This document shows positions 8,561 through 63,980 of a stretch of 64,000 nucleotides of DNA, piece after piece (the first letter of the stretch is position 1; each line of letters begins with the position of its first letter). This stretch comes from a virus. The position numbers were made by a program, and so were the translations under genes. Under the pieces are notes generated by a model, which made no database searches, was not told where the DNA came from, and saw nothing but the letters and a program-made list of their open reading frames with translations. Location of the stretch: positions 13,078 through 77,077 of the IMG/VR virus record IMGVR_UViG_3300022200_000033; one strand, 5' to 3'.

Positions 8561-11500
8561 TCCTTATCTGTGTGCCCTGCATTTGCTTAATTTTTGCAAT
8601 TGTTATATTTGCAATTTCATCTGCAGAAGCTCCAGCGTTACTAACATTAACTCCAACGCTATAACTATTATACATGGGAGCAGAGATGTTTGTCGAATTG
8701 TTGGACTCCATCTTTGTCATACCTTCAGACTTAGGCATACTATATTTTGGCATTGAAAATGATCCCTGGTTTATTGATGAAAGCATAGGCATTCCATACT
8801 TATCTACCATTGATTTACGAATAACGAACTCTCCTGGAGTAAGTCTTGCAGAAACAGAGTCTCTAGATCCATTGCCAGCAACTCCGCCTGCCATCATTCC
8901 AGGAGGTGGTTCGTTAGAGGTGTACTTGAGTAAACCTCCTGCTGCATACCCCTTAATCATTCCTCCAGCGTAGTGAACTTGACCAGTACCATACCTGATG
9001 TTTCCTAGGGCTGGATTTCCTCCTGCATCTGTTGGCCCTACTGATGCTTTGGCAAGTGCTTCTCTTGCAGCATTACCTGCGGCAATCCAGGCATCCCTGT
9101 ACTCGTTAACCTTTGTAACGTTGCCAGCAATTGATGCAACTAGCGCGGCATTCTCATCTTTTTGTCTTTGAAATTCATCTGCCGTGAGTCCTGCAGCGGT
9201 AAGATTACTAAGCGCAATGTCAAGAGCCTTTTGATGATTTTCTAGTATTCTAGAGTGTTGATTGTTTTGATTTGTTAGTGGCTCAATCATATCTTCATTG
9301 ATATTGTAAATTTCATTAGTAAGTCTACGAACCTCAAGACTGTTTGCATAAATCTTATCTTCTTCCATTCTAATCATTAAGCTTGCTTGATAAGACTGTT
9401 CTTTTATATCTGCAATTTGTCTTTCAGCTTCTTCTCTTGTTAAGCCCTCGCTTGTTCTGAGAGAATCAATAGCATTCTGCTTCCCCTGTTCAAGACCTGC
9501 TCTTGCTTGATCCTGTGCATCCTTTGCTTGATTCTGACGCATTGCTTGTGCAGCTGCTGTTGCAGCATAGATATCTCCTTCTGACAAAGCTTGAGAAATT
9601 CCCAATTGATCTTTTTGTTGTTGCAGTATTCTGTTGTTTAGTTCTTGAACTTTGTTAAGGGCACTAATTCTTTTATCGTATGCCTCAGAAATCTTGGTCT
9701 CTTGTTGACCCATAAGATCAAGTTCATGAGAAAGAGCATCTGAAACCCTGTTTCTTAATTCATCTTGTCTTTGAAGATCATCAATATTTTGACTGGTTAA
9801 GTCATTGATGCGCTCGTAATCATCAATTTCTTCTTGTTTTCCGTCAATAAGGTCTTGCTGTATTTGAATTAACTCTTCATTTGCATCAATTTGTTTTTGA
9901 ATTTCTTTTGTTGTTTTTTGTTCTGCCCCGTAACGCTTTTCTGCAAACTCATTTTCTACCCTTGTTTTCTCAACATCAAAGGCCATGCCTACTGTATTTG
10001 AGTATTCTGACCATGCCTTATTAAGTTCATCTACTGGATCTTTTGCTTCTTTTGTTACTGCAATAAATTCCTCAAATGCCGCAACAACTTCTTTGACAGA
10101 CTTTCCACCCCTGCCTGCTTTTGCCTCCAAAAGAGTAAAGACATAATCTGTGTTTGAGGCAAGACTCTTTGCATCTTCTTCGCTAAACCCTTGATCTATT
10201 AACATTGATTCAGCTCTACCCGATCTCTTTTTTGTTTTTATCTCATCTTGCATTCCTCTAAGAGTTTCGGCAATAGTAGCCTTTCTGTATTTCGCAAGCA
10301 ACTCTTTAACTTTTTTCTTATTTGCATTAAGGAGTTCTTGTGCTCTTTTTATTCCTTCTTCTCCACCACCAATTGCTTCAATTATTTGTTGCGGAATTGC
10401 TGGGAATTTTTTCTTTATTTTATCTAACATTCTAGGGAACATTTGTAGATTTGCTTCAGTCTCAGCAATTAAATCTTCTAGCCATGATCTTGTTTCTGAA
10501 CCTCCACCAGTATCTTCGGTATCGTCCGTTGTATCACCTTCTGTTTCTGTCGTTACACTATCTGTTCCTGGAGCAAGGGCCCCCATAGCAGCACTCAAAA
10601 GTCTGAGCCTTTCTGCTTTTATCCATCTTTCAGCAGCATCTGGCGACATACCTTTTGGAACATCTAACTCTAAAGACATAAGAGCGGCAACAGCAATTTT
10701 TACAGAAGATGGTGCCTTAGCAAAATCTTCAAGACCCATGCTCATAGCCTTTAATCCAGCAGCAACGTTTCCTGGCGCTTCTCCAAAAACTACTTCAGCT
10801 TGCTTTTTAGCGTTTTTCTTACTTTGGAATAGTTCATAGTTTTTAGAAATTTTTTGTAAAGCAGTAGCACCAATTGCTTCTACGGTAAGGTTTTTTCTTA
10901 CTGAAGGAGGAAGTGTTTCTAAGTCTTTCAAAACGCTTGTCATGTTTTCTAACTCTTCAACACTCATACCCTCTGCAGCCAGAACCAAGGTAGCTCTAAC
11001 TTTTTCTGGTAAATCTTCTGGAAGCTTAAGCAAGAAATTTCCAAAAGCAAGAATTTCTTCTGGACTCTTACCTTCTGTTTCTAATGAAATAAGAAATTCA
11101 GATCTTGCAGTCTCCCCCAGGCTTGCATAAATTCTTTCTACTTCGTTTGCCTGATCAAAATCTCCTTCTACCCTTAAGCCCATGGTTACCCCAAGAACCT
11201 TTGAGGCTTCTCCCCTACCACCTTGCTCACGATAAAGATCGTCTAGAATTTTAGAAGCTTCTGGATCTGACTCTCCAATTGATAAATCAAATATCATTTG
11301 ATATCTAATTTCTCTTTGCTTTTGCTCATCTAGGGCTGGCAACCCAGCCTGCCTTCTTTGAATCTCCATTGCAATTCGAGCAGATGCTAGCATTTTGTCA
11401 GTATCTAGCCCTTCTGTGCTAGCCTCAACAGATCTTTGCATCCCAGTAAGAGTTTCTCTTCCAATATCTGACAGTTTTCCGTCTTCTTCGGTTAAAGAGT

Positions 11501-14500
11501 TCATGTATTCAAGAAGTTCTGCTCTTCTTTGAGCTATTACTTCAGATTGTTCTTCTCTCAACTTCTTTCTTTGTGCAACTGCCTCTTCAAGTTGTCCTTG
11601 TTTAAGAATTCTTGCTTCTGAAGCTTTTTTCCTTTTGTCTTCCGTTTTGGCATTTTTTTCTTTTTCTTTTTCTAGACGGATTTCTTCTTTAAGTTTATTT
11701 ATTTTATCTTGCTGTGCAACAATTTGATACTCAACATTGTCTGAAAGGCTTTTTGCATTAGAAACCAAAGACTGTGTATATGCCACGCTAGCCCTTACTG
11801 CTTCATCAAATTCTCCAAAAACTAATTCTGCTCCAGGAAGGTTTTCATAAAAATCATCTCCCCATTTTTTTGCACTTTCTTCGGCCTGCCTTTTTAAAGT
11901 TTTTTCATCAAGCTCAATGCTAGCAACAATATTTGCCAGTATCGTCATTGGTCTTTCTGTTATATCCTCTCCGCTGGCACTTAAAATTTGAGTAATTTGT
12001 GCTATTACCTGTGCAGACAATTCTTCTTTTCCAAGAGCTTCTGCAATTCCCGAAGCAACAGCTTTTGCTTGATCTGGTGTAATCGCACCACTCACAATTG
12101 CCATTGAAAGTTGATTAGCAAAGTTTGTTGCAAAACCAGATGCATTTGCTTTAAAGGAAAGCTTTGCCTCTTCTACCATAGTTTTTCCAAATTCTGTTTC
12201 TACAAATTTTCTTCCTTCTTCTACTACTTCTGGAGTAAGTCCAGCAATCTTATCTTCATTTCTTGATTTAGAAATATCTCTCACAGTTCCATTAAAAAAT
12301 TCACCAAGACTTTTAATTTCTGAGGATGCTAAATTCATAGAATCAGACATTTTTTTGCCAGCATCAATATTATTATCAAGACCTTTTTTCAAAGCAAATC
12401 CTGCAACAGCTACGGATGCAAGAGCTGTTCCCATAATGCCTATTGGGGTTAATAGCAACGGTAAAGCTTTAAGCAACGCTGGCATCACCATTGCAAGTCC
12501 TTGAAAAGCAAACATTGCTGGCATAATCTTTTGAGCGAATTCTCCAATAGGTCCACTTAGCATAGATGCTCCGAAAGCTAATCCGCTCATGGCTCCCATG
12601 GCTCCATTTACTTTTAGTCCCCCAGAAACCATAGTTTTTCCAAATTTTGATGCAGACCCCTTAAGTTTAGACATAGAAGATGAAACTTGTTCTGTTTCTT
12701 TAGTTAATTTTGTCTGAGATAGTATTTGATTTTGAATAGAGTTTGGTGCTATCTGAAGACCCATATTTCTTGGTGGCAGAGGAGAGGATGGCCCTCCCAG
12801 TGGATTCATGGGCCCCATCCTTCCAGCAAATCTTGCATCAAAAGGTGTTGTCATTCCTGGAGCTATCGGAGGCATATTTAGGCTTAATGCTCTGCCTTTT
12901 TCCATAGCAGCTTTTATCTTTAAGTGAGCATCTTGAAGTTCTGCAGACATACCCTGCTCTATTCCCTGCCCAATCCATCCTCCAAGCTGAAGTGACCATG
13001 GTGGTGGGGAAGCAGCATTGGCACCTTCAGTAACTGCTGGCCTTAGTTCTCTTCCTCCAGAAAGACCAAACTCCCTAAACACTCTTTGTGCTGTTGATGT
13101 GCTAAACCCAGAGTCTGTAAGCATTTTCCTGCCTAGATCTGGGTCCATTCCTTGTGCTATCGCTGATGCAAAGATTGCCTTAGATGCTACGCCTCCAGCC
13201 CTCATCTGAGTGGCAAATGTAGCCCAGTATGCTCTAGATCCCTGTATTGCTGCTTGCTCTGCTGACTGTACAGATGAACGAATTAGTTCTGGGGAAACCT
13301 GATCAGAAGAAAATAACAGAGGTGCTTTTCTATAAGTTCTTCCAGAAGAAAGACTTTCTTGTCTTGTTCTTACTGAAGCGTCTCCCAGAGGGGAGGATAT
13401 TCTAATCCTATCGTTTTCTTGATCCATAACGATATTTCTTTCTGCAAGGAGTCTTCTTTGTTCATCTGTAAGATCTGATAGCCCACCAACGCTTACTCTT
13501 AAGTTGTTGTATTCATTTGAAAGATTTTCTATTTCAGAAAGCATCTGCCTTGTTTCATCGTCAAGACTAGAAAATGCTGTTCTAAAAATTTCATCAATGT
13601 TAGAGTCGCCAACTATTGCAAAATCTTCAGCAGCAGAGACTATCGCATTGTCAAGAAGCTGTAGCTTTGGCCTTAATTCTTCAAAATCTTGTCCAGTTAC
13701 TGCTACTGTGCTTTGCCATTTTTCTACTCCTGCTCCACCAAATTCCTGCCCAAATGATCCTCCAGTTAAAGAATCTCTTCTCATTGCTTCATTGAAATTT
13801 GTTGGCATTTCAACAATAAGATTGCTTACAGCGCCAATACTAGAAATTGTTCTTCCAAGAACTCTTTCAATTTCTTGCAAAACTGTAAGATTTCTTCTTG
13901 CACCTGCGGTTAAATTTTCCATAGCAAGGGCTTCTGAAGTGCCCAAACTTACTCTTCCAGTTAAATGAGTTCTAGCAGTTGAACCAACATAATCTGAAAG
14001 CTTTGACCCATCATTCAAACCTTTGACTGTTCCACGATTCATGGCATCAAGTACGGGAGCAAATCTTCTGGTTGCTTCTTTATTCATTACAAATTCACCA
14101 GGGGTTAGTAGTGCTGGCTCAGTATCTTTATTTCCAACGCCACTGATCATTCCACCAGTAGCCATTTTTTTAACAGGACGACCTCCAAATCCCTGAGGAA
14201 GTCCTGAAGCAGCAGAACCCGCTGCAGCAACATATGTTCCATAAGCTCTTGAAAGCTGTCCTACCGCACTTCTTTGAACGTTTAATGCAGCAGTTAATCT
14301 GGTGGTCTTTCCCTCTAAGCTTGCTGCTGCTGCTGCTGCATCTAACTGTTCTCCTGCCAAATATGAAAGATCCTGACCCCCACCCCTTAATCTGTTAAAC
14401 AAATTGTTAAACATTGCAAAACCTTTTACAGCTTGACCAATAAAGTTACCAAACAAACCAATAAGCATAATTACTGTTGGAGCCACAACCCCAACTCCAG

Positions 14501-39711: not shown

Positions 39712-40680
39712 TAAATTTCTCCTCCAAAGGCATGGAATGTAGATGCTCCATTAGTTGATTTAATTCTAAGTGTGTTATTTTCTTCCATTGTGTACCCGCC
39801 TTTAATCGTAATTGTTTCGTTTCCAAGAATGTCGTGGGACTTGAATAAGTAGTCCTCTGATGGAATTGCTGGGGATATATCTGGATTACCTATACTGACG
39901 GTAGTCCACTTATTACTCATAGAAATTGTCCCTTGTGTCCATGTAATGGCATCGGTGGAGGAGGCGTAGTATTGGGTGTTATATCCCACAGCAACAAACA
40001 TGCCATTGCCATAAGTGACGGCATTCCAACTACCACCAGGAGGAAGTGTTCTTTGTATCCACGTTACACCATCAGTGGAGGTTTGGGCTGTTGTGTAAGC
40101 GTTATATGACATGGCAACAAAGGTGCCATTGCCAAAAGTCATGCGTACCGTTCCGGCATTAACGGGATAGGTTGCCATTGTCCATGTAATGCCATCGGTG
40201 GAGGTGGCCGCTGCTTGGGAGTTTTTTGCCACAGTAACAAACGTGCCATTGCCATAGGCGACAGTCGTCCAATTCCGTGACTGTGGCGTTGAACTTCCTG
40301 TCCATGTAACACCATCAGTGGAAGATGCGACGGTGCCGTACGTCACGGACACAGCAACAAACGTGCCATTACCATAAGTGACGGCTTCCCACGGACGACT
40401 TATTGGCATTGTCCCTTGTGTCCATGTAATGCCATCGGTGGTGGTGGCGGAGTATTGGGAGTTGTATGCCGCAGAAACAAATATGCCATTGCCATGGGTG
40501 ATGCTGCGCCAAATTGCACTCACTGGCATCTGCCCTTGTATCCATGTAATGCCATCGGTGGAGGTGGTGGATACTTGGGAGCCGTATGCCACAGCAACAA
40601 AGGTGTCGTTGCCATAAGTGGAGGCGTACCAATAGTTACTCAAAGGCAAGGTTTTTGTCGTCCACACTATGTTATCGGTG
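38820..40680. repeat. Near-identical ~120-bp blade repeats shared by two adjacent propeller genes
   Basis: TCCATGTAATGCCATCGGTGGAGG and CCACAGCAACAAACGTGCCATTGCCATA recur many times. Confidence 0.9.
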
Positions 40681-52226: not shown

Positions 52227-52477
52227 TGATAAATAATAAAAAAATAAAGATCAATCACATGATGGCAGATACTCTATCTATCTCTACAGGAGAGGGTGCA
52301 TATTGTGGAGAGGGATCTAGTGAAATTGCATTCTTCAAAAATAAAGATTGGCAAGTAATTCCAATTCCCGAATTCGCTACATACCATGATGGTAGTGATA
52401 GCGTTGCAGAGACAGCCGTCTATCCATATGTACCTAATGAAAAGATAGAAAAGTTTTTAGATAAATACCGCGCATGA
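52226..52477 (+). CDS. Hypothetical protein
   Basis: GGAGG RBS; 'SISTGEGAYC...EIAFF...VYPYVP'. Confidence 0.65.
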   Translation: MINNKKIKINHMMADTLSISTGEGAYCGEGSSEIAFFKNKDWQVIPIPEFATYHDGSDSVAETAVYPYVPNEKIEKFLDKYRA

Positions 52478-52662
52478 AAAGCGTTGGTATATAAGGGTTT
52501 TTGATATAGCTAAAATACGTTGGTAATAAAGGAGTTTTGGTGCCTGCTTTCTTGTTAATTGTTTTCGTTCTTTCTGTATGTGCTTGGGCGGCTAGTGTCT
52601 TGTAAAACCGTTGGTACTAAAGGGATTTTTAGACTTGACATTTGAGAAAAATCCCGGCCCCC

Positions 52663-52798
52663 TGTGGATAACTTGTGGATAACCTTAAGATAACCCTTAA
52701 GAACCTGTGGAAAACCTGTGGAAACCTATTAACCTAATGTTCATCTTTAACACGGCGTGTCGATTTGACAAGCTTTTTTGTGCATAACTTGTGGATAA
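52663..52798 (-). promoter_or_regulatory. Cluster of six DnaA boxes in three pairs
   Basis: TGTGGATAA at 52663, 52674, 52790; variants TGTGGAAAA 52706, TGTGGAAAC 52717, TGTGCATAA 52779 (reverse of TTATCCACA). Confidence 0.85.
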
Positions 52799-52906
52799 CT
52801 TCGTTATCATTCTGTTATAAAACAAAAACGGACATATAGGATATTCGATAGGTCAAATGTCAGACCCTCGTGATAGGATCTAGTTACTAGATCGAAAGGA
52901 TAAAAA

Positions 52907-53053
52907 ATGTTTATTTACCTAGTTACCCTTACCAATGGCTCTACCGTGCGTGTCGAAACCGCAGGTGACCCTACCGTACACCCCGCGTTCTTTGAGCGCG
53001 TAGCCAATGTGGAAACCATTGGTGAATCTGGCAAATTACTCTCCCTAGTGTAA
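52907..53053 (+). CDS. 48-aa cassette protein
   Basis: GAAAGGA RBS; stop TAA is the start of the next motif. Confidence 0.65.
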   Translation: MFIYLVTLTNGSTVRVETAGDPTVHPAFFERVANVETIGESGKLLSLV

Positions 53054-53105
53054 TGTCAGACCCCCATGATAAACTAAACTTAGAAACATAGAAAAGAGAA
53101 ATAAA

Positions 53106-53264
53106 ATGAAAACATTCCTACACACAAATGACAATTCCCCTATGCCTACCTGCTCAGGTTGCTATAACCGACATGAGCCAGAAATGTGTCCACACGGTGA
53201 CATTGACAGTCTGCTAGAAAATTGGGAATGCACTCACGGGCATTTCAATTGCACTAAGCACTAA
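53106..53264 (+). CDS. 52-aa Cys/His-rich cassette protein
   Basis: CSGC..H....C.H...C.H...C; stop overlaps the next motif. Confidence 0.6.
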   Translation: MKTFLHTNDNSPMPTCSGCYNRHEPEMCPHGDIDSLLENWECTHGHFNCTKH

Positions 53265-53314
53265 ATGTCAGACCCCTGTGATAGTCTTTACTTATTCAAT
53301 CGAAAGGAAACAAA

Positions 53315-53527
53315 ATGTACAATCTTCAGAATCTCCCTAAGGATACCGCTGACTACCTTAACGAGTATCACTTAATTGCTGCCCGTGAAATCTCTCGCTT
53401 GCAGGCTCTCCCTGAAAGTGTAAAGCAAGCAAATGCAAACTCTCACCTCATTGGAAATGTAGACGGCGTTAGTCGTTGCGTTGATTGCGAAATTGGTGTT
53501 TGGAATGCATGGAAGCGTCAATGCTAA
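53315..53527 (+). CDS. 70-aa cassette protein with H..CVDC
   Basis: GAAAGGA RBS; stop overlaps the next motif. Confidence 0.7.
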   Translation: MYNLQNLPKDTADYLNEYHLIAAREISRLQALPESVKQANANSHLIGNVDGVSRCVDCEIGVWNAWKRQC

Positions 53528-53573
53528 TGTCAGTCCCCCATGCTAAGATCAAAATCTAACGAAAGGTAAAACT

Positions 53574-53738
53574 ATGAATCATCAAGCAATCATCACCCAC
53601 GTTTATTGCGGTGTGGAAAGCACTAGCGAAGTGGAAGACTTAGACCTAACCATGTTCTATGCAAAGTTCACGGGAACTATAAAAGGCATAACTAATGCGG
53701 GTTCACACATAACCAAAGTGGAAACGGTGGCAGTCTAA
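53574..53738 (+). CDS. 54-aa cassette protein
   Basis: GAAAGG RBS; stop overlaps the next motif. Confidence 0.62.
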   Translation: MNHQAIITHVYCGVESTSEVEDLDLTMFYAKFTGTIKGITNAGSHITKVETVAV

Positions 53739-53785
53739 TGTCATACCCCCATGGTAATGTGATCCCCATAAAGAAAGGAAATCAA

Positions 53786-54690
53786 ATGTCGGAACTCAAT
53801 AAGGCTTGGCGAGATATCTACTACATGCTAGAAGATAACGCTTTCGACTATGTTGGAAAGCCATTCTATAACGACAAGGAAGGAACCGTACAACTTTGGA
53901 ACGGTTCACAATTCATAACATATGCGGAGGTTCCATTCTAATGACAAAAGTTTCTATGCCCCGCGCAGATTGGGATACCGTCATCATGATATTGACAGAT
54001 GCACGCGATAGCGGAAAGTTCGCATACCTTGATCACATAACAGACACCATTGACCATGCACTAGATACCCAGGAGAACTAATGAAACAATTATTTATTTA
54101 TCATCAAGGAACATCAACACTCATTCCATTGAATGATGAGGTGTATCTAGTTGCCGCCGATATTGTTGGCGATGAAATGATCAACGACATGTCTGAAGGT
54201 TGCAACGTGTATCCAATGGAACACAAAGGATACCGCTTAGACAATTACAACATGACCAATTTATTTTTTGGAGGTGCAGAGTGACAAACTTTATCTGTGA
54301 ACATTGCGAATCAAATGAAAATCCTCAATCTGAAATGTGGGAGGAACTGTGTGTGTATTGTAATGAAACAATGCTAATCGCAAACCTAGAAATGGTGCAA
54401 CGACAAATCAAACTAATAGAAATGGATTAGCATGAAAACAAATTGGGCGCTAACAGAAGAAAAAAATATCAGCTTCGAACATTGCAACCGTCCTGCGTAT
54501 TGGGAAAATGAAAATGTTTATTGCTCAAAGTGTGGAGAGGAATTGCCAGATGTTATCTAATAAAGATTTGACACAAAAAGAGTTTGACGTTGCGCTAGAT
54601 CTAAAAATTGCAATGAATTGTTTGATGCAAGAAAACACGTTGGGAACAAAGGAGTATTTGCAGTCTGCAATTAAAAAGTTGCATACCTGA
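53786..54690 (+). CDS. Run of six coupled small ORFs (53786-53941, 53941-54081, 54081-54284, 54281-54430, 54432-54560, 54550-54690); two carry CxxC motifs
   Basis: TAATG/GTGA coupling and GGAG RBSs. Confidence 0.6.
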
Positions 54691-54820
54691 AAAACTGTTG
54701 GTAATAAAGGGTTTTTTGGGGCCCGGCCCATTTTCTTCCACTTGTCAAGTCTTTAAGATGTGTTTAAGATCACACCGAAAAACCCTTGACTTTTTATATA
54801 AAATAAGATAAAATGACATC

Positions 54821-54961
54821 ATGATCAAGACACGAAAAAAGACTAGCGAAGAAATTAGATTCTGGCAAGAATTGCGTAGATCTAACGCTGCCCAGAGTCA
54901 TCGCAATAAGAAAAAATATACTAGAAAAAATAAGCACAAGTCCTTGACTTTCTCTGAATAA
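54821..54961 (+). CDS. 46-aa basic ArfA-like peptide, not in the ORF track
   Basis: MIKTRKKTSEEIRFWQELRRSNAAQSHRNKKKYTRKNKHKSLTFSE; leaderless after TTGACT-N17-TAAAAT. Confidence 0.7.
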   Translation: MIKTRKKTSEEIRFWQELRRSNAAQSHRNKKKYTRKNKHKSLTFSE

Positions 54962-54978
54962 TAAGATAGGTTAATCTC

Positions 54979-55098
54979 ATGATATTAGAACTTGACCAAG
55001 ATGAATTCGATCAATTTGTTTCTATGCTACTACGCGATCCTGTAAATAAGCCAAAGCTTGCTAATCGTATGGCTACCCCCGCACCCTTCACCGACTAA
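54979..55098 (+). CDS. 39-aa peptide resembling the C-terminus of TacA/AtaR (DUF1778) antitoxins, not in the ORF track
   Basis: MILELDQDEFDQFVSMLLRDPVNKPKLANRMATPAPFTD; leaderless after TTGACT-N17-TAGGTT. Confidence 0.65.
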   Translation: MILELDQDEFDQFVSMLLRDPVNKPKLANRMATPAPFTD

Positions 55099-55127
55099 AT
55101 GTCAGACCCCCATGTTAGGATAACACC

Positions 55128-55685
55128 ATGAATAAATTAGCAGATAGCCCCATTGCCCTTGCCGAAGTTTCGGAACACTCCTACTACCAATGCATATTGC
55201 AGGCTACCCTCGCCCAAGTTGAGCAGGCTAGTGTCTGGTACTTTGAGGCACAAGAAGTTGCGGAAGATGTTGCTGAGATCATGGGCGTGAGTTTGGAAGT
55301 GGGTGCTAGTGTTGTGTCTGCATTCTCTCCCCGCGAACGTTGGGCTAGCAATGTTGCCAAGGCGTTTGCATTCGCACACGGTAAGCCCGTCAAGGGTTTG
55401 TCTAATAATCTCAATATGGCTAACAATAGTTTGACAATGGGATTCGAAGCACTTAATGGTCAGAAGACTAATGCATTCGCTCGCGCTATCGCTGGCGACT
55501 CTGACGCGGTAGTGATTGACGTTTGGATGATTCGTGCCGCAGGACTTGACGCTAGCAAAGGTGTAAATAAAACACAATACAACACGCTAGTTGATTCCGT
55601 TCGCAAAGTTGCAAAAGAGTTTGGACTAACACCGCGCACCGCGCAGGCATTGATCTGGATTGTAAAGAGAGGTAGTGCAGAGTGA
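55128..55685 (+). CDS. Conserved phage protein with HhH-glycosylase-like motifs (DUF7178-like)
   Basis: 'WY','SAFSPR..W..N','KT.AF..AI.GD...VVIDVW','QA.IW'; leaderless start. Confidence 0.6.
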   Translation: MNKLADSPIALAEVSEHSYYQCILQATLAQVEQASVWYFEAQEVAEDVAEIMGVSLEVGASVVSAFSPRERWASNVAKAFAFAHGKPVKGLSNNLNMANNSLTMGFEALNGQKTNAFARAIAGDSDAVVIDVWMIRAAGLDASKGVNKTQYNTLVDSVRKVAKEFGLTPRTAQALIWIVKRGSAE

Positions 55686-55915
55686 GTGAAATAATTATTG
55701 ACCCAAAAATATTTAGTGATGAACTTTCAAAAGTTTATGCTAGTCGTAATTCTGAAATTTCGGTCACCCTTCCAAAAATTGCGTGGGAGTCATTGCTAGA
55801 AATTTTGCAGAGTCATAACGCACCGCATGGTGATTTTGACATAACAACAATAATAAATTTGCATAATGAAATATCTGATCAGATGGGAAAACAAATAAAT
55901 GATAAAACTTTTTAA
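55682..55915 (+). CDS. Hypothetical protein (followed by a 25-aa TM peptide, 55899-55976)
   Basis: GTGA coupling, GAGG RBS. Confidence 0.55.
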   Translation: MSEIIIDPKIFSDELSKVYASRNSEISVTLPKIAWESLLEILQSHNAPHGDFDITTIINLHNEISDQMGKQINDKTF

Positions 55916-56117
55916 TTTTTTTGCAGGAATTGTTTTGATTGGGCTTGCGATATTTTTTGCGTTCAAGTATTGGTGAGTCAAAAACTGTTGGTACTAAAGG
56001 GTTTTAGCGGCCCGGCACGTTTTATTAGCTTTGTCAACCTTTTAAGAATCAATTAAGAATATGGCAGAAATCTGCATGAATTTGACAAGTGTCAGTCCTC
56101 TATGCTAAGGTAACCAC

Positions 56118-56300
56118 ATGATTACAGAAGAGATGGAAATAGAGTCATTAGAAGAAGGCGATCAAATTCTTTTTGGGGAAGATGATGTATATAAGATATT
56201 GTCTATAGATGAAGACATAATGAAGCTAGTAGATGAAAGTGGAGATGTGTTTCAAACTAATTACATTCCCACCCAAAAATTTCTTTTAATAGTTGAGTAA
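56118..56300 (+). CDS. Small acidic SH3-like protein
   Basis: 'LEEGDQI....VYKI'; leaderless start. Confidence 0.6.
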   Translation: MITEEMEIESLEEGDQILFGEDDVYKILSIDEDIMKLVDESGDVFQTNYIPTQKFLLIVE

Positions 56301-56370
56301 AACCCTTGACAAATGTCAGACCCCTGTGGTAGGATAAATCCATAACAACAACAAGTAAGGGTGGTTACAA

Positions 56371-56865
56371 ATGGGACTAGATCAGTATCTATACGCAAGA
56401 AAGTATATCTCTGCTAACAACTACAGTAGGGATGAAGAGGGTAACTTTAGCGAAACGCCTAATCCAGAGTTTTCCAATATCATGGAGCAAAGTGGTCTAC
56501 CGCTAGATATTAACAAGTATACTTTTTCAGGATCAGCAAATGTGGCAATTCAGGTTGGATATTGGCGCAAGGCTAATGCCATTCATGGTTGGTTTGTTGA
56601 TGGGTTGGCTAATGGTGTAGATGAGTGTCAAGAAATCTATGTACCCCGCGAGAAATTGTCGGAGTTGCGCGATCTCTGCAAGTCTGCTCTCAAGAAACCT
56701 GCCATGGCTGGCGAGATTCTTCCACCTACCGCAGGATTCTTCTTTGGATCTAATGAAGTAGATGAATGGTATATGGACGACCTAAAGACAACAGTCGAAA
56801 TGATTGACTATGTTCTTGCCAATACCTCTGATGACTATGATTTTTTCTATCAAGCCTCTTGGTGA
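56371..56865 (+). CDS. Conserved phage protein
   Basis: 'MGLDQYL','YWRKANAIHGWF','GFFFG','YQASW'. Confidence 0.75.
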   Translation: MGLDQYLYARKYISANNYSRDEEGNFSETPNPEFSNIMEQSGLPLDINKYTFSGSANVAIQVGYWRKANAIHGWFVDGLANGVDECQEIYVPREKLSELRDLCKSALKKPAMAGEILPPTAGFFFGSNEVDEWYMDDLKTTVEMIDYVLANTSDDYDFFYQASW

Positions 56866-56994
56866 GGCTCCAACAATCGCATCCAAGTGCCTCCAAAAGT
56901 CGCACATAACAATTTCATAACGGTAGGGCAAATGACTTGACTCTATGCCCCAACTATGATAGGGTACTACTAACAACAACGAAGGGTTATAAAA

Positions 56995-57387
56995 ATGGGT
57001 GATCGTGCAAACTTTGGTTTTCGTCAGGAAGATGGATCTATTATCTTTCTGTATGGACATTGGGCTGGCGAGGGTATGATGAATACTCTGGCAGAAGCAA
57101 TTGCTAAAGCTCGACCACGTTGGACTGACAGTTCATATGCCACAAGAATTTGTATCTCACAAATCATTGGTGATGAATGGAAAGAAGAAACAGGCTGGGG
57201 AATCTCTACTTCGTTTGGAGATAATGAGCATTCTGTTCCCATTGTTGATTGGGAATCTCAAGCAGTTTCTCTCTATCAGGCAGATTGGAATACTGTTAAT
57301 ACAGACTTTCTCAATCATACCCCCAAGTTTGCAATGGGGCTGGAGGCGTTTATAAATAAATTTGCAAAGTACTTGACAACTGTATAG
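56995..57387 (+). CDS. Conserved phage protein
   Basis: 'MGDRA','LYGHWAG','RWTD.SYATRI'; SigA promoter at 56937. Confidence 0.75.
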   Translation: MGDRANFGFRQEDGSIIFLYGHWAGEGMMNTLAEAIAKARPRWTDSSYATRICISQIIGDEWKEETGWGISTSFGDNEHSVPIVDWESQAVSLYQADWNTVNTDFLNHTPKFAMGLEAFINKFAKYLTTV

Positions 57388-57435
57388 AAGTAGTGTAAGG
57401 TAATCCATATAACAACAACAACGAAAGGCAATAAC

Positions 57436-57612
57436 ATGGCAAAGAATCTAACATCCCGTACCCCCAAGAATGAAATCTGGGTTCGTACAATCGGTCAGTT
57501 TGCTGGCAAGAAGGTTGCAAAGAAAGTACACCGCTCAAAGGGTGGTCAATTTTTGGGTGGTACAAATCAAACCGCTGAAAAGTTGGTTGGTCGCGTGGGT
57601 GCATTTAGTTAA
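57436..57612 (+). CDS. 58-aa basic protein
   Basis: GAAAGG RBS, TTGACA-N17-TAAGGT promoter; 'HRSKGGQF'. Confidence 0.65.
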   Translation: MAKNLTSRTPKNEIWVRTIGQFAGKKVAKKVHRSKGGQFLGGTNQTAEKLVGRVGAFS

Positions 57613-57629
57613 TCTAACTTAGGTTAGAA

Positions 57630-57656
57630 ATCCTGAGCATGATCTCAAACTGCTCA
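57630..57656 (+). ncRNA. Mini H-type pseudoknot element, copy 1
   Basis: ATC-C-TGAGCA-T-GAT-CTCAAAC-TGCTCA. Confidence 0.55.
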
Positions 57657-57690
57657 ACTCAAATAAATCAAATCAAACAAAGGAAATAAA

Positions 57691-57828
57691 ATGGGTACAT
57701 TGACAATCGGTTCAGAGTTCGTTTCTCAGAAGTCAGCACACAAGGGTGTCATTGCTGAAATTGTAGAGAATGTAACTGGTTCAATGCGGGTACGTTTTGA
57801 AGATGGTCGTTGGACTACCGTTTCGTAA
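57691..57828 (+). CDS. 45-aa SH3-like protein
   Basis: AAGGA RBS; 'G.I.EIV.......RVRFEDGRWTTV'. Confidence 0.65.
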   Translation: MGTLTIGSEFVSQKSAHKGVIAEIVENVTGSMRVRFEDGRWTTVS

Positions 57829-58011
57829 TCTGATATAATCAAACACACAATTCAATAGTGGCTTGGGATATGCGACCCGTAGTTAATTCTACATCGACTC
57901 GCTTCCCCACTTGTAGTCTAGTGTACCAACATCATAGAGATATGACAAAAAATGTTTTGTCTCGCTACAAGTTAATCGTGAAGGGTTAAGCCTAGATACC
58001 TTCACACTCTT

Positions 58012-58084
58012 GGTTCTGTAGAGCAGCGGAGTGCTCGCCACCCTGTCACGGTGGAGGTCGTGGGTTCGAATCCCATCAGAATCG
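58012..58084 (+). tRNA. tRNA-Asp(GTC)
   Basis: Acceptor GGTTCTG/CAGAATC, anticodon arm CCACC-CTGTCAC-GGTGG, T-loop GTTCGAATC; no encoded CCA. Confidence 0.95.
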
Positions 58085-58086
58085 CT

Positions 58087-58140
58087 GTCCCCCTAGGTTG
58101 AGCATACCCACCCACCTTGCTCCCTGGGGGGACTCTTTTT
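58087..58140 (+). terminator. Long hairpin with C-rich loop plus U-tract
   Basis: GTCCCCCTAGG..GAGCA-TACCCACCCACCT-TGCTC-CCTGGGGGGAC-TCTTTTT. Confidence 0.7.
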
Positions 58141-58303
58141 GTAGGGAAAATCCCGGCACGCGAGCTCTGATTTGTCAAGCTTTTATGATGTGATTAAGGA
58201 CACACTAGAAATCTGGGAGTTTTTATAAATAACTATTGACAAATGTCAGTCACATAGTATATAGTTTGACTATCAAATAAACACACTATAGATAGGAAAT
58301 CAC

Positions 58304-59299
58304 ATGGCTCACATGTTAGAACAATACGGCGATATGGCTTCTTTTGCTTCCCTGCGCCAACCTGCATGGCACGGTTTGGGAACCGTCCTTGAGGAAGAGG
58401 TTACCACATCAGAAATGCTAAAGGCTGCACATCTTGATAATTGGAATGTGCGTTGCGAAGAAATTGCGCTTCCAGGTCGTTCTACCACCAACTACTTTGC
58501 TACCGTTCGCACTAATCCTTTCGATGGTGAGAATGATGTGCTAGGTGTTGTGGGAGAACGCTACCGCACTTTGCAGAATGAGGAATTGTTTGCATTTGGC
58601 GATAACATTCTTGACGGTGCGCGTTGGGAAACTGCTGGCTCTATCAAAGATGGAAAAGTTGTTTTTGGTTCCCTCGCACTTGAGCGCGAATCTATCATTG
58701 ACCCCAATGGTGTAAGCGATAAAGTTAATTCATATCTTTTGGTTCACACATCACATGATGGATCACTTGCTATTCAAGCAAGCATCACACCTGTGCGCGT
58801 TGTCTGCCAGAATACATTGAACATGGCTGTTGGTGCGCGTGGTAAGTCTGCAAAGCAATCATTCCGCATTCGTCACACCCAAACTGTTGAGGGTAAAATC
58901 ATGGCTGCGCGTGAGGCACTTGGTCTTGCTAATAAGTACATGGACGAATTCGATAAGCAAGCGCAGGACTTGTTTGCGCGTGAGATTGACGCTAACAAGT
59001 TCTTTGAGATTGTTAAGGCTGCATACCCTGAGCCAGATGCAGATGTAAAAGGTTCTGCTACTAAGTGGACAAACAAAGTTGATACTCTGTTTGATATTTG
59101 GAATGGCCCAACAAATGTTGGTATTGCTAAAACTGCGTGGGGTGCTTACAACTCACTAACCGAACGCCTTGACTGGTACCGTAATCCTCGCGGTGGTAAT
59201 GCAGAGTCTGTGCTTGCTGCTGCTAGTGGATTCGATGCTGCTACCAATGCAGAAAAGAATCGCTTGCTTTCTGTTGTCAAGGAATTGACTACCGTCTAA
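58304..59299 (+). CDS. DUF932 / TIGR03299 phage-plasmid protein
   Basis: 'PAWHGLG','LGVVGERY..LQN','WETAGS','SHDGS','TPVRVVCQNTL','IRHT','TAWGAYN'. Confidence 0.9.
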   Translation: MAHMLEQYGDMASFASLRQPAWHGLGTVLEEEVTTSEMLKAAHLDNWNVRCEEIALPGRSTTNYFATVRTNPFDGENDVLGVVGERYRTLQNEELFAFGDNILDGARWETAGSIKDGKVVFGSLALERESIIDPNGVSDKVNSYLLVHTSHDGSLAIQASITPVRVVCQNTLNMAVGARGKSAKQSFRIRHTQTVEGKIMAAREALGLANKYMDEFDKQAQDLFAREIDANKFFEIVKAAYPEPDADVKGSATKWTNKVDTLFDIWNGPTNVGIAKTAWGAYNSLTERLDWYRNPRGGNAESVLAAASGFDAATNAEKNRLLSVVKELTTV

Positions 59300-59305
59300 T
59301 TTGTA

Positions 59306-59332
59306 CACCTGAGCATGTGCCTAAACTGCTCA
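59306..59332 (+). ncRNA. Mini H-type pseudoknot element, copy 2
   Basis: CAC-C-TGAGCA-T-GTG-CCTAAAC-TGCTCA. Confidence 0.55.
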
Positions 59333-59535
59333 CCCCCACCATGTAAATATAAAAGCTGACTTGACATTTGCATGGCAAAGGGGCCGGAAACATTTTTCTA
59401 TATAAACATAAATAATAACTCTATTAAGATGCATTAAGATGAATCCCAGGAATTTGCCAATATTTTTGTAGTAAACACTTGACATTTGACAGATATGTGT
59501 ATAGGATTGCGCTATAACTACAACTAAGGAGAATT

Positions 59536-59985
59536 ATGTCTTATCTAGATACCCCGATTGAGGCTACTGTCTCTCAATATACCCCCAACTATTCCCCAGA
59601 CCAGATCAAGCAGATGCAATATGATCTTAATGTTCTAGCAAAAGAGAATGAAAGGTTTAGACTTGATGTAGGTTCTCTACGCCGTCAGTTAATGGAGAAA
59701 AGTGGATACATTGAAAGTGCTAAAGATCTTATTGTAGAAGCATTTGAGATAGATGACTTTGACAAAGATCTTTTTATTGCCATTGCAGAAACACTTGATA
59801 TTGAACTTACCAAAGAACTTAGTGTGACTATTAATGTTTCTTTTTCTGGTACTGTTACTGTACCGTTGGGATTTGACATGGATGTTATTGAGAGGCACAT
59901 TGACTTTGAGGCTTCCACCAATAGTTATACTGAACTTGAATGCGATCTCTTTACAGATAGTATTGACTTTAACATCAACGACTGA
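59536..59985 (+). CDS. Hypothetical protein, coiled coil plus beta domain
   Basis: AAGGAG RBS, TTGACA promoter. Confidence 0.7.
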   Translation: MSYLDTPIEATVSQYTPNYSPDQIKQMQYDLNVLAKENERFRLDVGSLRRQLMEKSGYIESAKDLIVEAFEIDDFDKDLFIAIAETLDIELTKELSVTINVSFSGTVTVPLGFDMDVIERHIDFEASTNSYTELECDLFTDSIDFNIND

Positions 59986-59997
59986 TAGGATCACTAC

Positions 59998-60174
59998 ATG
60001 CTTACATTTGAGAATGATGGTTTAACTAAAGATCAGATGTTGTCTGAATATACCGTGCTTGGATTTGCCATGTACTTGTGTGTGGTAGAGCGTAAGTCAG
60101 ATGGTGTGCGAGGCACACTTGACTTTACTGATGTTGCTGGTGTAAGGTACTACTATGATTTCAAGGAGGCATAA
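59998..60174 (+). CDS. 58-aa hypothetical protein
   Basis: Leaderless after TTGACT-N17-TAGGAT; 'VLGF...VVERKSDGVRGTLDF....RYYY'. Confidence 0.65.
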   Translation: MLTFENDGLTKDQMLSEYTVLGFAMYLCVVERKSDGVRGTLDFTDVAGVRYYYDFKEA

Positions 60175-60507
60175 TGAAATACAAGGTAGAAATTGAAAAG
60201 ATATCCTATGTCTATGTAATTGTTGATGCTGAAGATGGTGATGAAGCATTCGACTATGCAGAATCAAATGTAGAAAGTTTATTTAATGTAGGTACTGAGT
60301 CAGGCCCAGATGCTTACAACGTCTTTGATGAAATTTTGGAGGCATGATGGGCACAATTGTTTTTGATAACATAGATCAAGATTTACTAAACCTGCAAAGA
60401 TTAGAGTTAATTAATCTTATTTGGGATGACTTAGAAAGTCCCTTGTGGGGTCTTGTAAATATGCTAGATGACTGGTATGATCGCACTTACCCAATCAAGG
60501 AGGCATC

Positions 60508-60855
60508 ATGACTGAAGATGAATGGTATGAAACATACAAGCCTATCAAGAATCATATAGACCCTGATGGGGCTTCTTGGAATGGTGAGATGTTTGAGACA
60601 TATGGCGAAGAGGTTGAGTTTGTTATTAGCCAACCAGATGAAAATATCTGGACATGGGTAGAAGCAGATGGAGGTACTTATCTAGTAAGTGGTTATCATT
60701 TTGTAAATAGAATGGGATACATTATTTGTTCCGTGCCTTGGACAGAAGAGGCAATGGAGATAACTATTGACGAGCCAGAGGAATCCTGTGATGAATGCGG
60801 AGAGAATGTGGAGGACGGAGACTGTGAGTGTGAAATGGAATCAGTTGGAGTTTGA
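60508..60855 (+). CDS. Acidic hypothetical protein with C-terminal CxxC..CxC
   Basis: AAGGAGG RBS. Confidence 0.7.
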   Translation: MTEDEWYETYKPIKNHIDPDGASWNGEMFETYGEEVEFVISQPDENIWTWVEADGGTYLVSGYHFVNRMGYIICSVPWTEEAMEITIDEPEESCDECGENVEDGDCECEMESVGV

Positions 60856-61677
60856 TTTCGATTATGCCGAGGAACAATGGAAGGATAACAATGGAAACCC
60901 AATTGCCTGAAAAGATAAATGTAATTAGATCTATCACCTATGATGTGCCCAGCATTGTTGATTCCTTGAAGGAACTAATGGGGGAAGAGGATATTAACAT
61001 AGATAGTGTTATGGAATACATTGAAGATTGGGTGTCAGAAGACATGTCAGCACCCTTGTCTCGCCACGACCTTACCTACCTAGATGAGAACGGGATGGAA
61101 CTGTGAAGAAAGAAGAAATGATTGCTGAGTTTACTAAGATGATAGATCATGCTCACGAAGCAGGGTGGCATGAAGGGTATATCAAGGGAATGGAGTTTCA
61201 TAGTGATACACATCTATGAGTGTACTGATGGGGCGACTGTATATCATGAAGCTTACAAGACTGTAATTGGTGAGGGGTGGGGGGAAGACTATATCCTTAC
61301 CTTGGAAGATCAAAATGAATTTGACTTATACCTTGACATAATCAAGGCTCAGGGTGTAGACTTTGTAATCCACACACTAAAGGAGTATGATGAGTATCAC
61401 CTCGCAATATCGTCCTAGCAAGCGTCCTAGCGTAAAGTCTGTTAATTACTGGGACTCTATCTATGCAGAAAGAATTGAACCTCATTGGCGTGGTAATGAT
61501 TTTAATGGTGACGTAGAAGTATTTAGGGGAGACCCATTCCCAGACTTTTATAAAATGATCTTCACACCAGACAAGGGCAAGAAGATAAGTAAACTATTCT
61601 ATGGTGAGTCTGCATGGAATGAAGTAGAGCGTTGCGTCTATGACCTTGGAGCACATAGTGTATTGGGGAGGATTTAA
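60852..61677 (+). CDS. Run of small hypothetical ORFs (incl. 60852-61106, 61149-61418, 61387-61677)
   Basis: ORF track plus RBSs; starts uncertain. Confidence 0.5.
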
Positions 61678-61816
61678 TGTCTAAGTATCTAGTTACAATT
61701 ACTGAATACGATGATGGTGAGGCATATGATGAATTCGTTATCACCAACCCTGATGCCCTAATAGATTTTATTCAACTTCCTATCGTGGGAGTAGTAGCAG
61801 ATGGAGAGGGGATGTA

Positions 61817-62110
61817 ATGGATTTTCATAATGAGTTTTCTGTTCCCGTTTTGACAGGGCAGATGGATGAGTATCTAGATGGAATGATTCGCACCATTCAG
61901 ATGCGTAAGAAGGACATGGCTCCCAAGGTATGGGAATTCCAGGTTGGGGATCGTGTACGCCTGGTGAATGCTAATCCTAAGTATCTTATTGGTGCATTGG
62001 CTACCGTGCGTAAGGTTAATAGAACTAAGATTGTTATTGACTTAGATCGGACATACGGTAGGTTCTCTAACAATATCTCTACCCCCCCTTCTATGGTGGA
62101 GAAGGTATAG
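61817..62110 (+). CDS. KOW/SH3-like protein
   Basis: 'FQVGDRVRL........GALATVRKVNRTK'. Confidence 0.65.
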   Translation: MDFHNEFSVPVLTGQMDEYLDGMIRTIQMRKKDMAPKVWEFQVGDRVRLVNANPKYLIGALATVRKVNRTKIVIDLDRTYGRFSNNISTPPSMVEKV

Positions 62111-62115
62111 GGATT

Positions 62116-62189
62116 GGGGCATTAGCTCAGCTGGTTAGAGCCCCGAACTCATAATTCGGTCGTCGTTGGTTCGAGTCCAACATGCCCCA
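62116..62189 (+). tRNA. tRNA with CAT anticodon (probably Ile2/lysidine, possibly elongator Met)
   Basis: GGGGCAT/ATGCCCC acceptor, CCGAA-CTCATAA-TTCGG arm, GTTCGAGTC; paired 1:72 and no 3 G-C pairs, so not initiator. Confidence 0.92.
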
Positions 62190-62248
62190 CTTGACAGCGG
62201 TACACAGATATGATAGGTTAGACCCATCATCAAACGAAAGGGTATATC

Positions 62249-63305
62249 ATGGAAAAAGTATTCGAGGGCTATCGAATTGTTCTAGAGGTAGATCAAGATT
62301 GGTTTGAGGCTATCGCAAAGATGACTGATTATTCAGAGCATGGTGAACTCATGAATTGGGTATCAACAGATCGTATCACCGTTACACGCGAGGTATGCGA
62401 TATTTGCAATGTTATTGCAGATGAGTTAGAATACATTGAACATGATGATTTCATTCACGAACAAGAGGAGGAAGAAGTCTAATGGCAACTATCGGTGGTA
62501 CACAAGAATTCATGGCAGCACACATGGGTCACAAGACAAGTATCTCTATGCTTGAATTATCTGACGTTAGGTATATTACAGAGATATGCAAACTACATCA
62601 CGATGGTAGTCTCTGTGTTTCTTTAGGTGAGAAGGATAGCGAAGAGTGGGTACAGAATACTGGTGCATATCTTTACTGTCATGATTGCCAAGTAGAAGAA
62701 GAATTAAATTTGGGGGAAGTTGTAGAGGACTAACTCTTGACAATACCCCCACTAGATGATAGCATTGGAGCATGATGGAAAGACAGGCAAACAAGATACT
62801 AGACATTATTGCTGACGGTAGATATAGTCTTTCTGACATTGACTATCTTGGCTTTCATGTAGTAAACTTATCAACGAGGCAAGTGAGAAAAAATGCTTTA
62901 ACACTTGCTGATTCAATTATTCATTATTCCGAAAACCCTTTCTCAGGAGATGTAGATGGACAAGACACCCTTTTCTAAATGTGAAATTTTATCAGACCTA
63001 TACAATGATTTTTTTGGCACACCAGAGTGGGAAGATTTTTTTCTTAAGAATGATCTTGGAATTTTTTGTGCCGTTAGTTTTGTTGCAGGTTCTACAACCT
63101 TAACAGATATCGGTGAAAGAGATGTTGTTGCTGCCTACAACGCTTTATGTGAAACTCTGAAAGTAGACAAAGAGTTTTCATTTTCTACCATAGATGAGAT
63201 GCTAGAGTGAACAGGGGTAACGATGCGCTAACCGCATTCTTTGGTGGGTTTGTTTTCCTGATTGTTTTCTTCTTTATCCTGGTTGGAATATTCTCTATCT
63301 TCTGA
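62249..63305 (+). CDS. Small hypothetical ORFs (62249-62482, 62482-62733, 62772-62978, 62956-63210, TM peptide 63207-63305)
   Basis: SigA promoters at 62191 and 62737, coupling, RBSs. Confidence 0.6.
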
Positions 63306-63340
63306 AAAGAGGGCCGGGGATCTTATAATAAATAAAAAGA

Positions 63341-63980
63341 CATTACGAAGAGCTCTCAAAATCGCCGAGCTTTTTTATAAAAGGTATTACGAAGAGCTTG
63401 TAAAATCGCCAGGGATAGGATATAATTAACTGTGACATGTATCGTAGGTATAGTAGATAACGATACTATATATATGGGTGGGGACAGATCTGCATCAGAT
63501 GATTCATCTATAGTATCTATGATAAAACCAAAGGTATCTATAAAAGATGAATGGATATATGGTTATGCAGGTACTATAGGTATAGGACAGCTTATTAATT
63601 ATATCGATCTACCTTCGCCAGAAGGAGATATAGAAAAGATTATTAGATTAGATATATGTGAGAGTCTTAAAACTATGATAGATTCCCATGCCAGGGATAT
63701 AGAGAATGAAGATACAGGTTTTCTTATAGGTGCAAAGGGTAGATTGTTTGAATTTAATGTAGGTGACTGGGGGGTATTAGAAGTAGATCAATCCTCTATA
63801 GGAAGCGGTAGTCAAATAGCTCTAGGTTCTCTTCATACATCTATAGATAGTGATCCAATAGATAGAATAGGTATAGCTCTTGGAGCTGCTATCACATATT
63901 CCCCATCATGTCAAGGTCCAATAGATATTATATATATATAGTATATAAGGTATTACGAAGGATCTCTAAAATCCCCGATG
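63341..63980 (+). repeat. Three copies of ATTACGAAG-N-AAAATCSCC
   Basis: At about 63342, 63386 and 63952, flanking the HslV-like gene. Confidence 0.8.
63432..63941 (+). CDS. HslV/proteasome-beta-like Ntn hydrolase
   Basis: N-terminal (M)TCIVG, 'MGGD', 'K', 'GYAG', 'SIGSGSQIALG'. Confidence 0.8.
   Translation: MTCIVGIVDNDTIYMGGDRSASDDSSIVSMIKPKVSIKDEWIYGYAGTIGIGQLINYIDLPSPEGDIEKIIRLDICESLKTMIDSHARDIENEDTGFLIGAKGRLFEFNVGDWGVLEVDQSSIGSGSQIALGSLHTSIDSDPIDRIGIALGAAITYSPSCQGPIDIIYI

Follow-up and report, generated by a model that had tools for sequence, protein, structure and literature searches.

The L5 gp71-type immunity repressor is known for a 13-bp asymmetric stoperator consensus such as GGTGGMTGTCAAG, and the palindromic KorB operators of IncP plasmids, bound by a ParB-family protein bearing a helix-turn-helix (HTH), represent one motif that recurs, at distances that vary, close to the numerous promoters of a regulon. 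In cluster A mycobacteriophages, stoperators occur as many copies of a short, asymmetric, intergenic motif, which are lineage-specific and biased in orientation relative to transcription (PMC6550527, PMC9283540). Regarding phages with long terminal repeats, those of the Streptomyces cluster BE phages measure 10.7–11.5 kb (PMC5764925), T5-like phages are restricted only through sites in the repeat (PMC10644984), and the injection stop region of T5 contains paired DnaA boxes (preprint 10.1101/866236). Here, we report on 64,000 nt of a viral contig (IMG/VR record IMGVR_UViG_3300022200_000033, positions 13,078 to 77,077; referred to as the window), in which the otherwise avoided tetranucleotide CCGG is found in GC-rich blocks at the operon boundaries of an early gene arm. 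We observed the depletion of CCGG, its placement, its conservation in relatives, lineage-specific cores that are restricted to the arm, and a co-ordinated exchange of these cores. As a tentative explanation, to which we give somewhat less than an even chance, genome-wide avoidance of a restriction site would come into conflict here with a recognition site under constraint, which a DNA-binding regulator probably reads in a stoperator-like manner.

By analogy, the cluster A stoperators would be the closest model. As in those phages, an actinophage carries many copies of one short asymmetric intergenic motif in which related phages differ, with six blocks in the window, 19 in each terminal repeat of the BE phage Karimac, 16 in the BE phage Bmoc, and eight in a complete metagenomic relative (G004). 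The BE version of the motif, GGCCGCCCCGGCC, also comprises 13 bp, and a TGTCAAG element accompanies the block in the window. The KorB operators share with our case a repeated motif near many promoters that allows co-ordinated control, but they are palindromic, and the BE repeats encode ParB-related proteins only in short forms with the ParB N-terminal domain, while nothing comparable was found in scans of the window. The arm itself resembles the first-step-transfer repeat of T5 and the host-takeover module of SPO1 in its length of about 10–13 kb, its many small early genes, and its strong host-type promoters. Moreover, the gene for a DUF932 protein, which serves as an anchor here, is located in the 10.7–12-kb terminal repeat of related BE phages, and DnaA-box-like pairs, which recall those of the T5 injection stop, are present at 52663–52799 beside the first block. 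In contrast to T5, in which vulnerability to restriction runs via repeat sites only, the repeat-like arm of the window is the only place keeping CCGG. Finally, the strong lineage-specific loss of short palindromes against Markov expectation is shared with known restriction-site avoidance in phages; the difference is that the CCGGs left over here mostly belong to a single functional motif class and recur at equivalent positions in relatives.

CCGG depletion and placement in the window

Counting revealed seven CCGGs in the window (40153, 52654, 54723, 56012, 58153, 59384, and 63314), compared to 53.7 ± 6.0 expected from dinucleotide-preserving shuffles. For the whole 77,077-bp contig, seven CCGGs stand against a Markov expectation of 50.3, and the observed/expected ratio of 0.14 was the lowest among all 256 tetranucleotides. 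A preliminary description of this DNA had listed the last six of these positions as boundary sites and, by eye, one further site at 40153 in GC-rich repeats, and had suspected that CCGG is avoided genome-wide; the counts bear out both.

Six of the seven CCGGs mark operon boundaries in the plus-strand early arm, which extends from about 50.6 kb to the end of the contig, whereas a single one was found outside the arm, where 35 were expected. Five lie within the 9.5% of the window that is not covered by any open reading frame (ORF; binomial P about 1e-4), and the CCGG at 63314 is covered only by a doubtful ORF of 55 amino acids with a TTG start, which extends across a promoter module.

Composition and folding of the boundary modules

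At the boundaries, CCGG represents the core of a GC-rich block of about 9–13 bp, usually asymmetric, which is located 3' of the upstream terminator or hairpin and 5' of the next promoter (Table 1). The core in the window approximates (G)GCCCGGC(M)C. Three blocks read CCCGGC-N15-TGTCAA with equal spacing (54722, 56011, and 58152), and two others have TTGACA upstream, at 13 nt (52654) and 17 nt (59384); 3' of each site, TTAAGA/TTACGA-type direct repeats and a sigma-70-like promoter are found. In these spacings the preliminary description was accurate, and the two cases with upstream TTGACA turned out to be the same composite element in inverted form. Searching both strands, we identified five occurrences of CCGG-N11-18-TGTCAA, compared to 0.34 expected. 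This composite element (52635–59387) has forward orientation on the 5' side of the DUF932 gene but is inverted immediately 3' of the gene, and the same arrangement was detected in three related loci (L003, L005, and L010).

On their 5' side, the blocks are preceded by hairpins of different strength. Upstream of block 4, a tRNA-Asp gene is followed by a strong terminator hairpin at about 58087–58140 (fold of the block 4 segment, -40.9 kcal/mol, z -3.8). The A/U-rich AAAAC/GTTTT motif just 5' of blocks forms a weak hairpin and appears in both orientations in relatives (inverted in L004:6690–6716). Given this weak folding, the motif could act as a weak terminator in both directions or be a further site bound by a protein. 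DnaA-box-like pairs (TTATCCACA / TGTGGATAA, 11-bp period) abut the GC blocks of relatives as well, in either orientation (L003:3940–3965, L004:2975–3000, L023, and L047). In addition, CRP/GlxR-type palindromes (TGTGA-N6-TCACA) were noted inside the TTAAGA repeats of the window (54759–54774) and beside blocks in L032, L023, L041, and L025.

Folding of the six CCGG-containing segments against shuffles resulted in two segments that were more stable than their shuffles (z -3.8 and -2.2), while the other four revealed z values of +0.5 to +0.9. The stability of the former segment stems from the hairpin 5' of the block, and in the latter pairing involves only the GGGG immediately 5' of CCGG. Across the six folded sites, no consistent hairpin holding the CCGG core was found, and the core was mostly unpaired. 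These results bear on the idea that CCGG is merely a by-product of the GC-rich stems found in intrinsic terminators or in small hairpins with a protective role, the only places in an AT-rich genome in which such words would arise and be tolerated. Blocks do come after operon ends, and those of relatives include near-palindromes of G-runs and C-runs that could form GC stems of 4–5 bp (GGGGCTCGGGCCCC, GGGGCCGCGCCCC) with A/T-run flanks. However, besides the unpaired cores and the two of six segments that fold better than shuffles, the cores CCGCCCCGG, GGCGAGCC, and CAGCGCCAG of related phages lack self-complementarity, the BE block sits 3' of a separate perfect UUCG hairpin, and composition alone does not explain cores that are uniform within a genome or exchanged in a co-ordinated manner. 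We therefore consider a by-product of this kind very unlikely. The origin of the blocks from terminator stems in particular is unlikely because folding placed no consistent hairpin at the CCGG cores, with z above 0 in four of the six segments.

Conservation in metagenomic relatives

Using the DUF932 protein, we retrieved 74 related loci from IMG/VR (L001–L074). Most of them contained no CCGG over 10–20 kb, while a subset had three to nine. In eleven inspected loci that keep CCGG, every copy except one is part of the same type of module, and a motif-context count for the remaining low-count loci placed most or all CCGGs in module context; in L023, L032, L034, and L039, this applied to all listed CCGGs. 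Three near-complete relatives were counted over their whole length. G002 (99.6 kb) contains seven CCGGs instead of 56 expected, all seven in modules of the arm, and G003 (101 kb) six instead of 50, again all in modules, so that the module copies are the sole CCGGs of these two genomes. In G001, eight of 21 CCGGs belong to modules, and the rest are mostly found in GC-richer stretches near fibre genes.

On either side of the DUF932 gene, CCGG persists in the module in six to seven close relatives, whereas nearly every flanking base is variable, and the spacing from the block to TGTCAA is likewise kept despite a variable spacer sequence. Since the modules keep CCGG while their flanks diverge, the comparison indicates that the boundary CCGGs are kept by selection and not by chance. 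Conservation at matching modules is also what the preliminary description had named as a check on its view that these sites are deliberately retained.

A history without function, in which the modules would be duplicates of one ancestral spacer and the CCGGs inherited passengers awaiting removal, could draw on the visibly paralogous modules, which share TTGTCAAG, TTAAGA repeats, and an identical N15 spacing. Yet about 35–50 CCGGs were purged elsewhere, while those in fast-evolving spacers were kept at matching modules in six to seven genomes. On a tree of the DUF932 proteins, moreover, the distinction between 'CCGG in modules' and 'no CCGG' requires at least seven state changes, each leading to another specific core and not to random decay. 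This explanation is extremely improbable.

The avoidance of palindromes is lineage-specific and concerns CCGG, CGCG, AGCT, GCGC, TCGA, or GATC, each of the last five being absent in some lineages and normal in others. For instance, AGCT occurs once in G001 where 337 copies were expected, and CGCG, GCGC, TCGA, or GATC are missing from many loci. The CCGGs outside of modules (40153 in the window; 33.3–34.9, 41.1–41.3, and 45.3 kb in G001) are located in or near tail-fibre genes in GC-richer stretches (47–49% in G001), which would fit recently acquired DNA from which CCGG is incompletely purged.

Lineage-specific cores and their exchange

Relatives that are free of CCGG possess another GC-rich block at the equivalent position, with one uniform core per genome, namely GGGCGCCCC in L047, GGGGCCCGA(G)CCCC in L041 and L028, GGGGTCGCCCC in L019, GGCGAGCC in either orientation in L014, GGCCGCCCC in L025 and L035, and GGGGCCGCGCCCC in L009. 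Block orientation is mixed in L025 and L019. In the complete 117-kb genome G004, which is CCGG-free, all eight copies of GGCGAGCC fall within 7.5 kb of the arm, and in G001 all four copies of CCAGGCCGG are located in the arm.

The exchange of a core can be followed by comparing L049, which has seven CCGGs, with L044, which has none. Both loci are collinear with 76–91% identity, but the GGGCCCGGG-type block of L049 is replaced in L044 by a CAGCGCCAG-type block, (C)AGCGCCA(G), at four modules and is absent at three. Despite the change of the block, several modules have almost the same flanks in both loci. Sister lineages with CCGG-free blocks (GGGCGCCCC, GGCGAGCC, GGCCGCCCC, and CAGCGCCAG, e.g., L044 and L047) still avoid CCGG.

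A comparable motif in the terminal repeats of Streptomyces BE phages

The early arm corresponds in position to the roughly 11–12-kb terminal repeat of the BE phages. In Karimac (L093), the motif was noted within 1–12425 and 119.3–131.9 kb, and the DUF932 gene is located inside the terminal repeat. The word CCGCCCCGG occurs 38 times in Karimac, all copies being divided between the two repeats (19 each), with none in the 107 kb of unique DNA and none of the reversed control word. The Karimac block lies 0–6 nt 3' of a hairpin with a UUCG loop and 16–24 nt 5' of the -35 element. In Bmoc (L100, 1–11000), 16 copies of CCGCCCCGG were identified in the first 11 kb, 12 of them in the extended form GGCCGCCCCGGCC. 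In these two phages, nearly all UUCG terminator hairpins have the motif on their 3' side, frequently with AAAAGATCTTG behind it. In Karimac, CCGG is not avoided, with 73 copies in 16 kb compared to 83 expected. Since L044, L047, and other relatives avoid CCGG although their cores lack it, and since Karimac shows no avoidance although its core contains CCGG, we take the depletion and the motif to be two separate phenomena that overlap in the lineage of the window.

In the literature searched, including a full-text sequence search, we found no description of the BE motif, of motifs in BE terminal repeats, or of the intergenic retention of avoided sites. The motif restricted to the terminal repeats (38 copies in Karimac, 16 in the first 11 kb of Bmoc) is absent from that literature, and since BE phages can be cultivated and manipulated, experiments can show directly whether it acts as a roadblock, as the site of a regulator or of a nick, or as a signal for a nuclease.

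Probable restriction avoidance and a proposed constrained site

From the observations above, we infer restriction as the cause of the depletion, binding of a protein to the block, and a regulatory role. Each lineage would purge its own short palindromes, with restriction-modification pressure by the host as the likely cause. Each operon boundary of the early arm, which presumably serves host takeover, carries one GC-rich block placed 13–17 nt from TGTCAA or beside DnaA- or CRP-like sites, and this block would most likely be a sequence-specific site on double-stranded DNA for a putative regulator. Through these sites, used as operators or transcription roadblocks, the regulator could act on the strongly transcribed early operons together, insulating or switching them. 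For the core to change, all sites would have to change in concert, presumably along with the protein that reads them, a step some relatives have made, and because of this requirement CCGG would survive only at the blocks. A protein site on double-stranded DNA appears to fit best because the words are asymmetric with 8–13 bp, the core is uniform within each genome and restricted to the arm, the spacing on the promoter side is fixed, and cores were exchanged in a co-ordinated manner. Two selective forces, evasion of defence and a cis-acting signal, would thus clash on the same four bases, and relatives would resolve this conflict differently.

Several findings weigh against this explanation. As a candidate regulator, we identified only a 180-amino-acid HTH_17 protein (G000, 12278–12820) conserved in five relatives, which revealed no detectable similarity to solved repressors in a PDB search. 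The blocks of the window are degenerate, and their orientation is mixed, with four forward and two inverted blocks in the window and 14 and five, respectively, in each Karimac repeat. A scan of the window for the BE-like 9-mer GCCCCGGCC with up to two mismatches resulted in 27 matches compared to 32.6 expected, i.e., no enrichment. For this reason, the proposed link between the window and the BE motif is limited to the short match CCCGGC and to position, in that blocks flank the DUF932 gene on either side and sit between a terminator and a promoter, and no wider homology is claimed. Furthermore, cluster A phages are temperate and carry their sites genome-wide, whereas the sites described here occur only in the early arm or terminal repeat; the block is also GC-rich with a CpG-containing centre. 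Because of this restriction to the arm, and since no gp71-like repressor was found, the system of the window is not a member of the stoperator family. CCGG is the one element shared by cores with different flanks (Karimac, L003, L049, L032, L023, and the window), so that CCGG itself might be what is read in these lineages. The polarity of the blocks flips at the DUF932 gene. Finally, if the arm is a first-entering terminal repeat, its CCGGs would be expected to be more exposed than any others, as in T5-like phages (PMC10644984), and constraint alone may be insufficient to explain their retention. In view of the shared CCGG, the polarity flip, and the T5-like exposure, the blocks could also be nick or cut targets, Chi-like signals, or entry signals.

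If CCGG itself were the target, an enzyme of host or phage would nick, cut, or methylate the boundary sites, and the others would have been removed so that only these respond. In this way, recombination-dependent replication could begin at the repeat, early operons could be turned off, or the methylation state of the host could be sensed. CCGG is indeed invariant across the differently flanked cores CCGCCCCGG, CCAGGCCGG, GGGCCCGGG, AAATTTCCGGRG, and GGCCCGGC, and no CCGG exists outside of modules in G002 and G003. The phage also encodes RecA, a PD-(D/E)XK nuclease, and endonuclease VII, and site-specific nicks are known in T5-like phages with long terminal repeats (PMC10644984). On the other hand, many relatives that avoid CCGG have equivalent blocks without it, the non-palindromic cores GGCGAGCC and CAGCGCCAG behave alike, and Karimac harbors the motif together with nearly the expected number of CCGGs. 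Searches for methyltransferases of the C5 and N4/N6 types in G000, and of the C5 type in five relatives, detected none; an HNH protein was found in one relative only. Thus, of the preliminary proposal that these are deliberately retained target sites, the retention by selection stands, but a role of CCGG itself as a methylation, nick, or cut target is not supported in view of the CCGG-free blocks of CCGG-avoiding relatives and of Karimac, which shows no avoidance. Both the target and the purposes suggested for it seem rather unlikely to us.

Alternatively, the blocks might be signals for DNA processing, either polar host-specific Chi-like words that tame an end-resecting nuclease of the host, or pause or stop signals for stepwise entry together with DnaA-box pairs, a role proposed for the injection stop signal of T5. 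The cores are asymmetric GC-rich words of 8–9 bp that occur only in the terminal repeat or early arm, and their polarity flips along the arm at the DUF932 gene in the window as well as in relatives. At the inner repeat boundary of Karimac, three copies are inverted, so that each physical end meets the same relative orientation first. A change of host would explain the co-ordinated exchange of cores, and paired DnaA boxes lie beside blocks, as they do in the T5 signal (preprint 10.1101/866236). However, the strictly intergenic location of the blocks, 13–17 nt from TGTCAA or from -35 elements and 0–6 nt from terminator hairpins, would be needless for a nuclease or entry signal, and the inverted Karimac copies also lie 3' of a gene, namely one on the opposite strand. 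We regard a DNA-processing signal as unlikely.

Going beyond a constrained site for a regulator, the blocks could represent a fast-evolving 'address code' of the first-entering terminal repeat in a family of lytic actinophages. It would consist of a polar, lineage-specific word that is read by a phage or host protein, as roadblock operators for cross-immunity or as nuclease, nicking, or entry signals, and that is retained though it contains a purged restriction site. We consider this broader proposal possible but doubtful. If true, the rewriting of all copies from GGGCCCGGG to CAGCGCCAG would mark a switch in specificity. Should a phage protein read the cores, then, given how fast and in what co-ordination they turn over, the principle behind stoperator-type immunity would also apply to lytic phages that possess long terminal repeats.

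Source of the DNA and additional features

The 77,077-bp IMG/VR contig is linear and about 71% complete, and the window represents its right-hand 64 kb. Its gene set is that of a siphovirus, including a tape measure protein of 2,529 amino acids, portal, capsid, ribonucleotide reductase, DnaE, RecA, primase, DnaB, and endonuclease VII. Structural and replication genes are encoded on the minus strand, while the plus-strand early arm contains many small ORFs, the majority of which have no family match. For another 20 small ORFs of the early arm, Pfam scans detected no useful family, and a DNA search of the early arm against near and distant cultured phages resulted in tRNA matches only. With portal, capsid, and DUF932 protein as queries, the nearest cultured relatives were Streptomyces cluster BE/BK phages with 41–55% amino acid identity. 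WhiB is encoded in the three near-complete metagenomic relatives, and therefore the phage and its freshwater relatives are classified as actinophages. Based on the BE/BK kinship and on WhiB in relatives, the host is most likely a low-GC freshwater actinobacterium.

Table 1. Positions of the boundary modules and further features in the window
Feature	Position	Strand	Remarks
Only in-gene CCGG	40153..40156	.	in GC-rich fibre-tip repeat gene
Hairpin motif AAAAC-GTTGGTAnTAAAGG-GTTTT (longer form AAAAACC-GTTGGTAnTAAAG-GGTTTTT), three copies	52476..52628	+	more copies at 54690-54715 and 55980-56005
GC block 1 (TCCCGGCCCCC)	52652..52662	+	paired DnaA-box-like repeats immediately 3'; inverted TGTCAA partner TTGACA at 52635-52640
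DnaA-box-like repeat cluster, co-oriented (TGTGGATAA pairs, 11-bp period)	52663..52799	+	adjoins block 1
GC block 2 (GGGGCCCGGCCC)	54718..54729	+	3' of A/U-rich hairpin motif 54690-54715; after N15, TTGTCAAG at 54742-54749
TTAAGA direct repeats around CRP-like TGTGT-N6-TCACA palindrome	54752..54775	+	equivalents at about 56040-56060 and 58181-58205
GC block 3 (GCGGCCCGGCACG)	56007..56019	+	3' of hairpin motif 55980-56005; after N15, TTGTCAAC at 56031-56038
GC block 4 (ATCCCGGCACGCG)	58150..58162	+	upstream boundary of DUF932 gene; after N15, TTGTCAAG at 58172-58179
DUF932 gene (phrog_1221)	58304..59299	+	anchor gene common to terminal repeats of Streptomyces BE phages
Block 5, inverted (CCGGCCCC-N-TGTCAA on minus strand)	59361..59387	-	downstream boundary of DUF932 gene; matching module with CCGG in 6 relatives
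Block 6 (AGGGCCGGGGA; minus-strand reading TCCCCGGCCCT)	63310..63320	-	followed by ATTACGAAG-type 35-nt repeats at 63332-63366 and 63376-63410

Apart from the blocks, a promoter element AAATGTCAGACCCC..TAnnnT was noted in at least 11 copies between 50773 and 56333 (e.g., at 51553, 53052, and 55098), in which TGTCAG is followed after 10 nt by TAnnnT. Its spacing equals that of the consensus of PafBC-dependent promoters in mycobacteria, tGTCgg(N10)tA(N3)T (PMC8635444), and by this resemblance the small early cassettes may be driven by PafBC, a DNA-damage activator of the host. Further downstream in the arm (63432–63941), a protein of 169 amino acids revealed a match to a PHROG of HslV-family peptidases (phrog_1040, E 6e-13).

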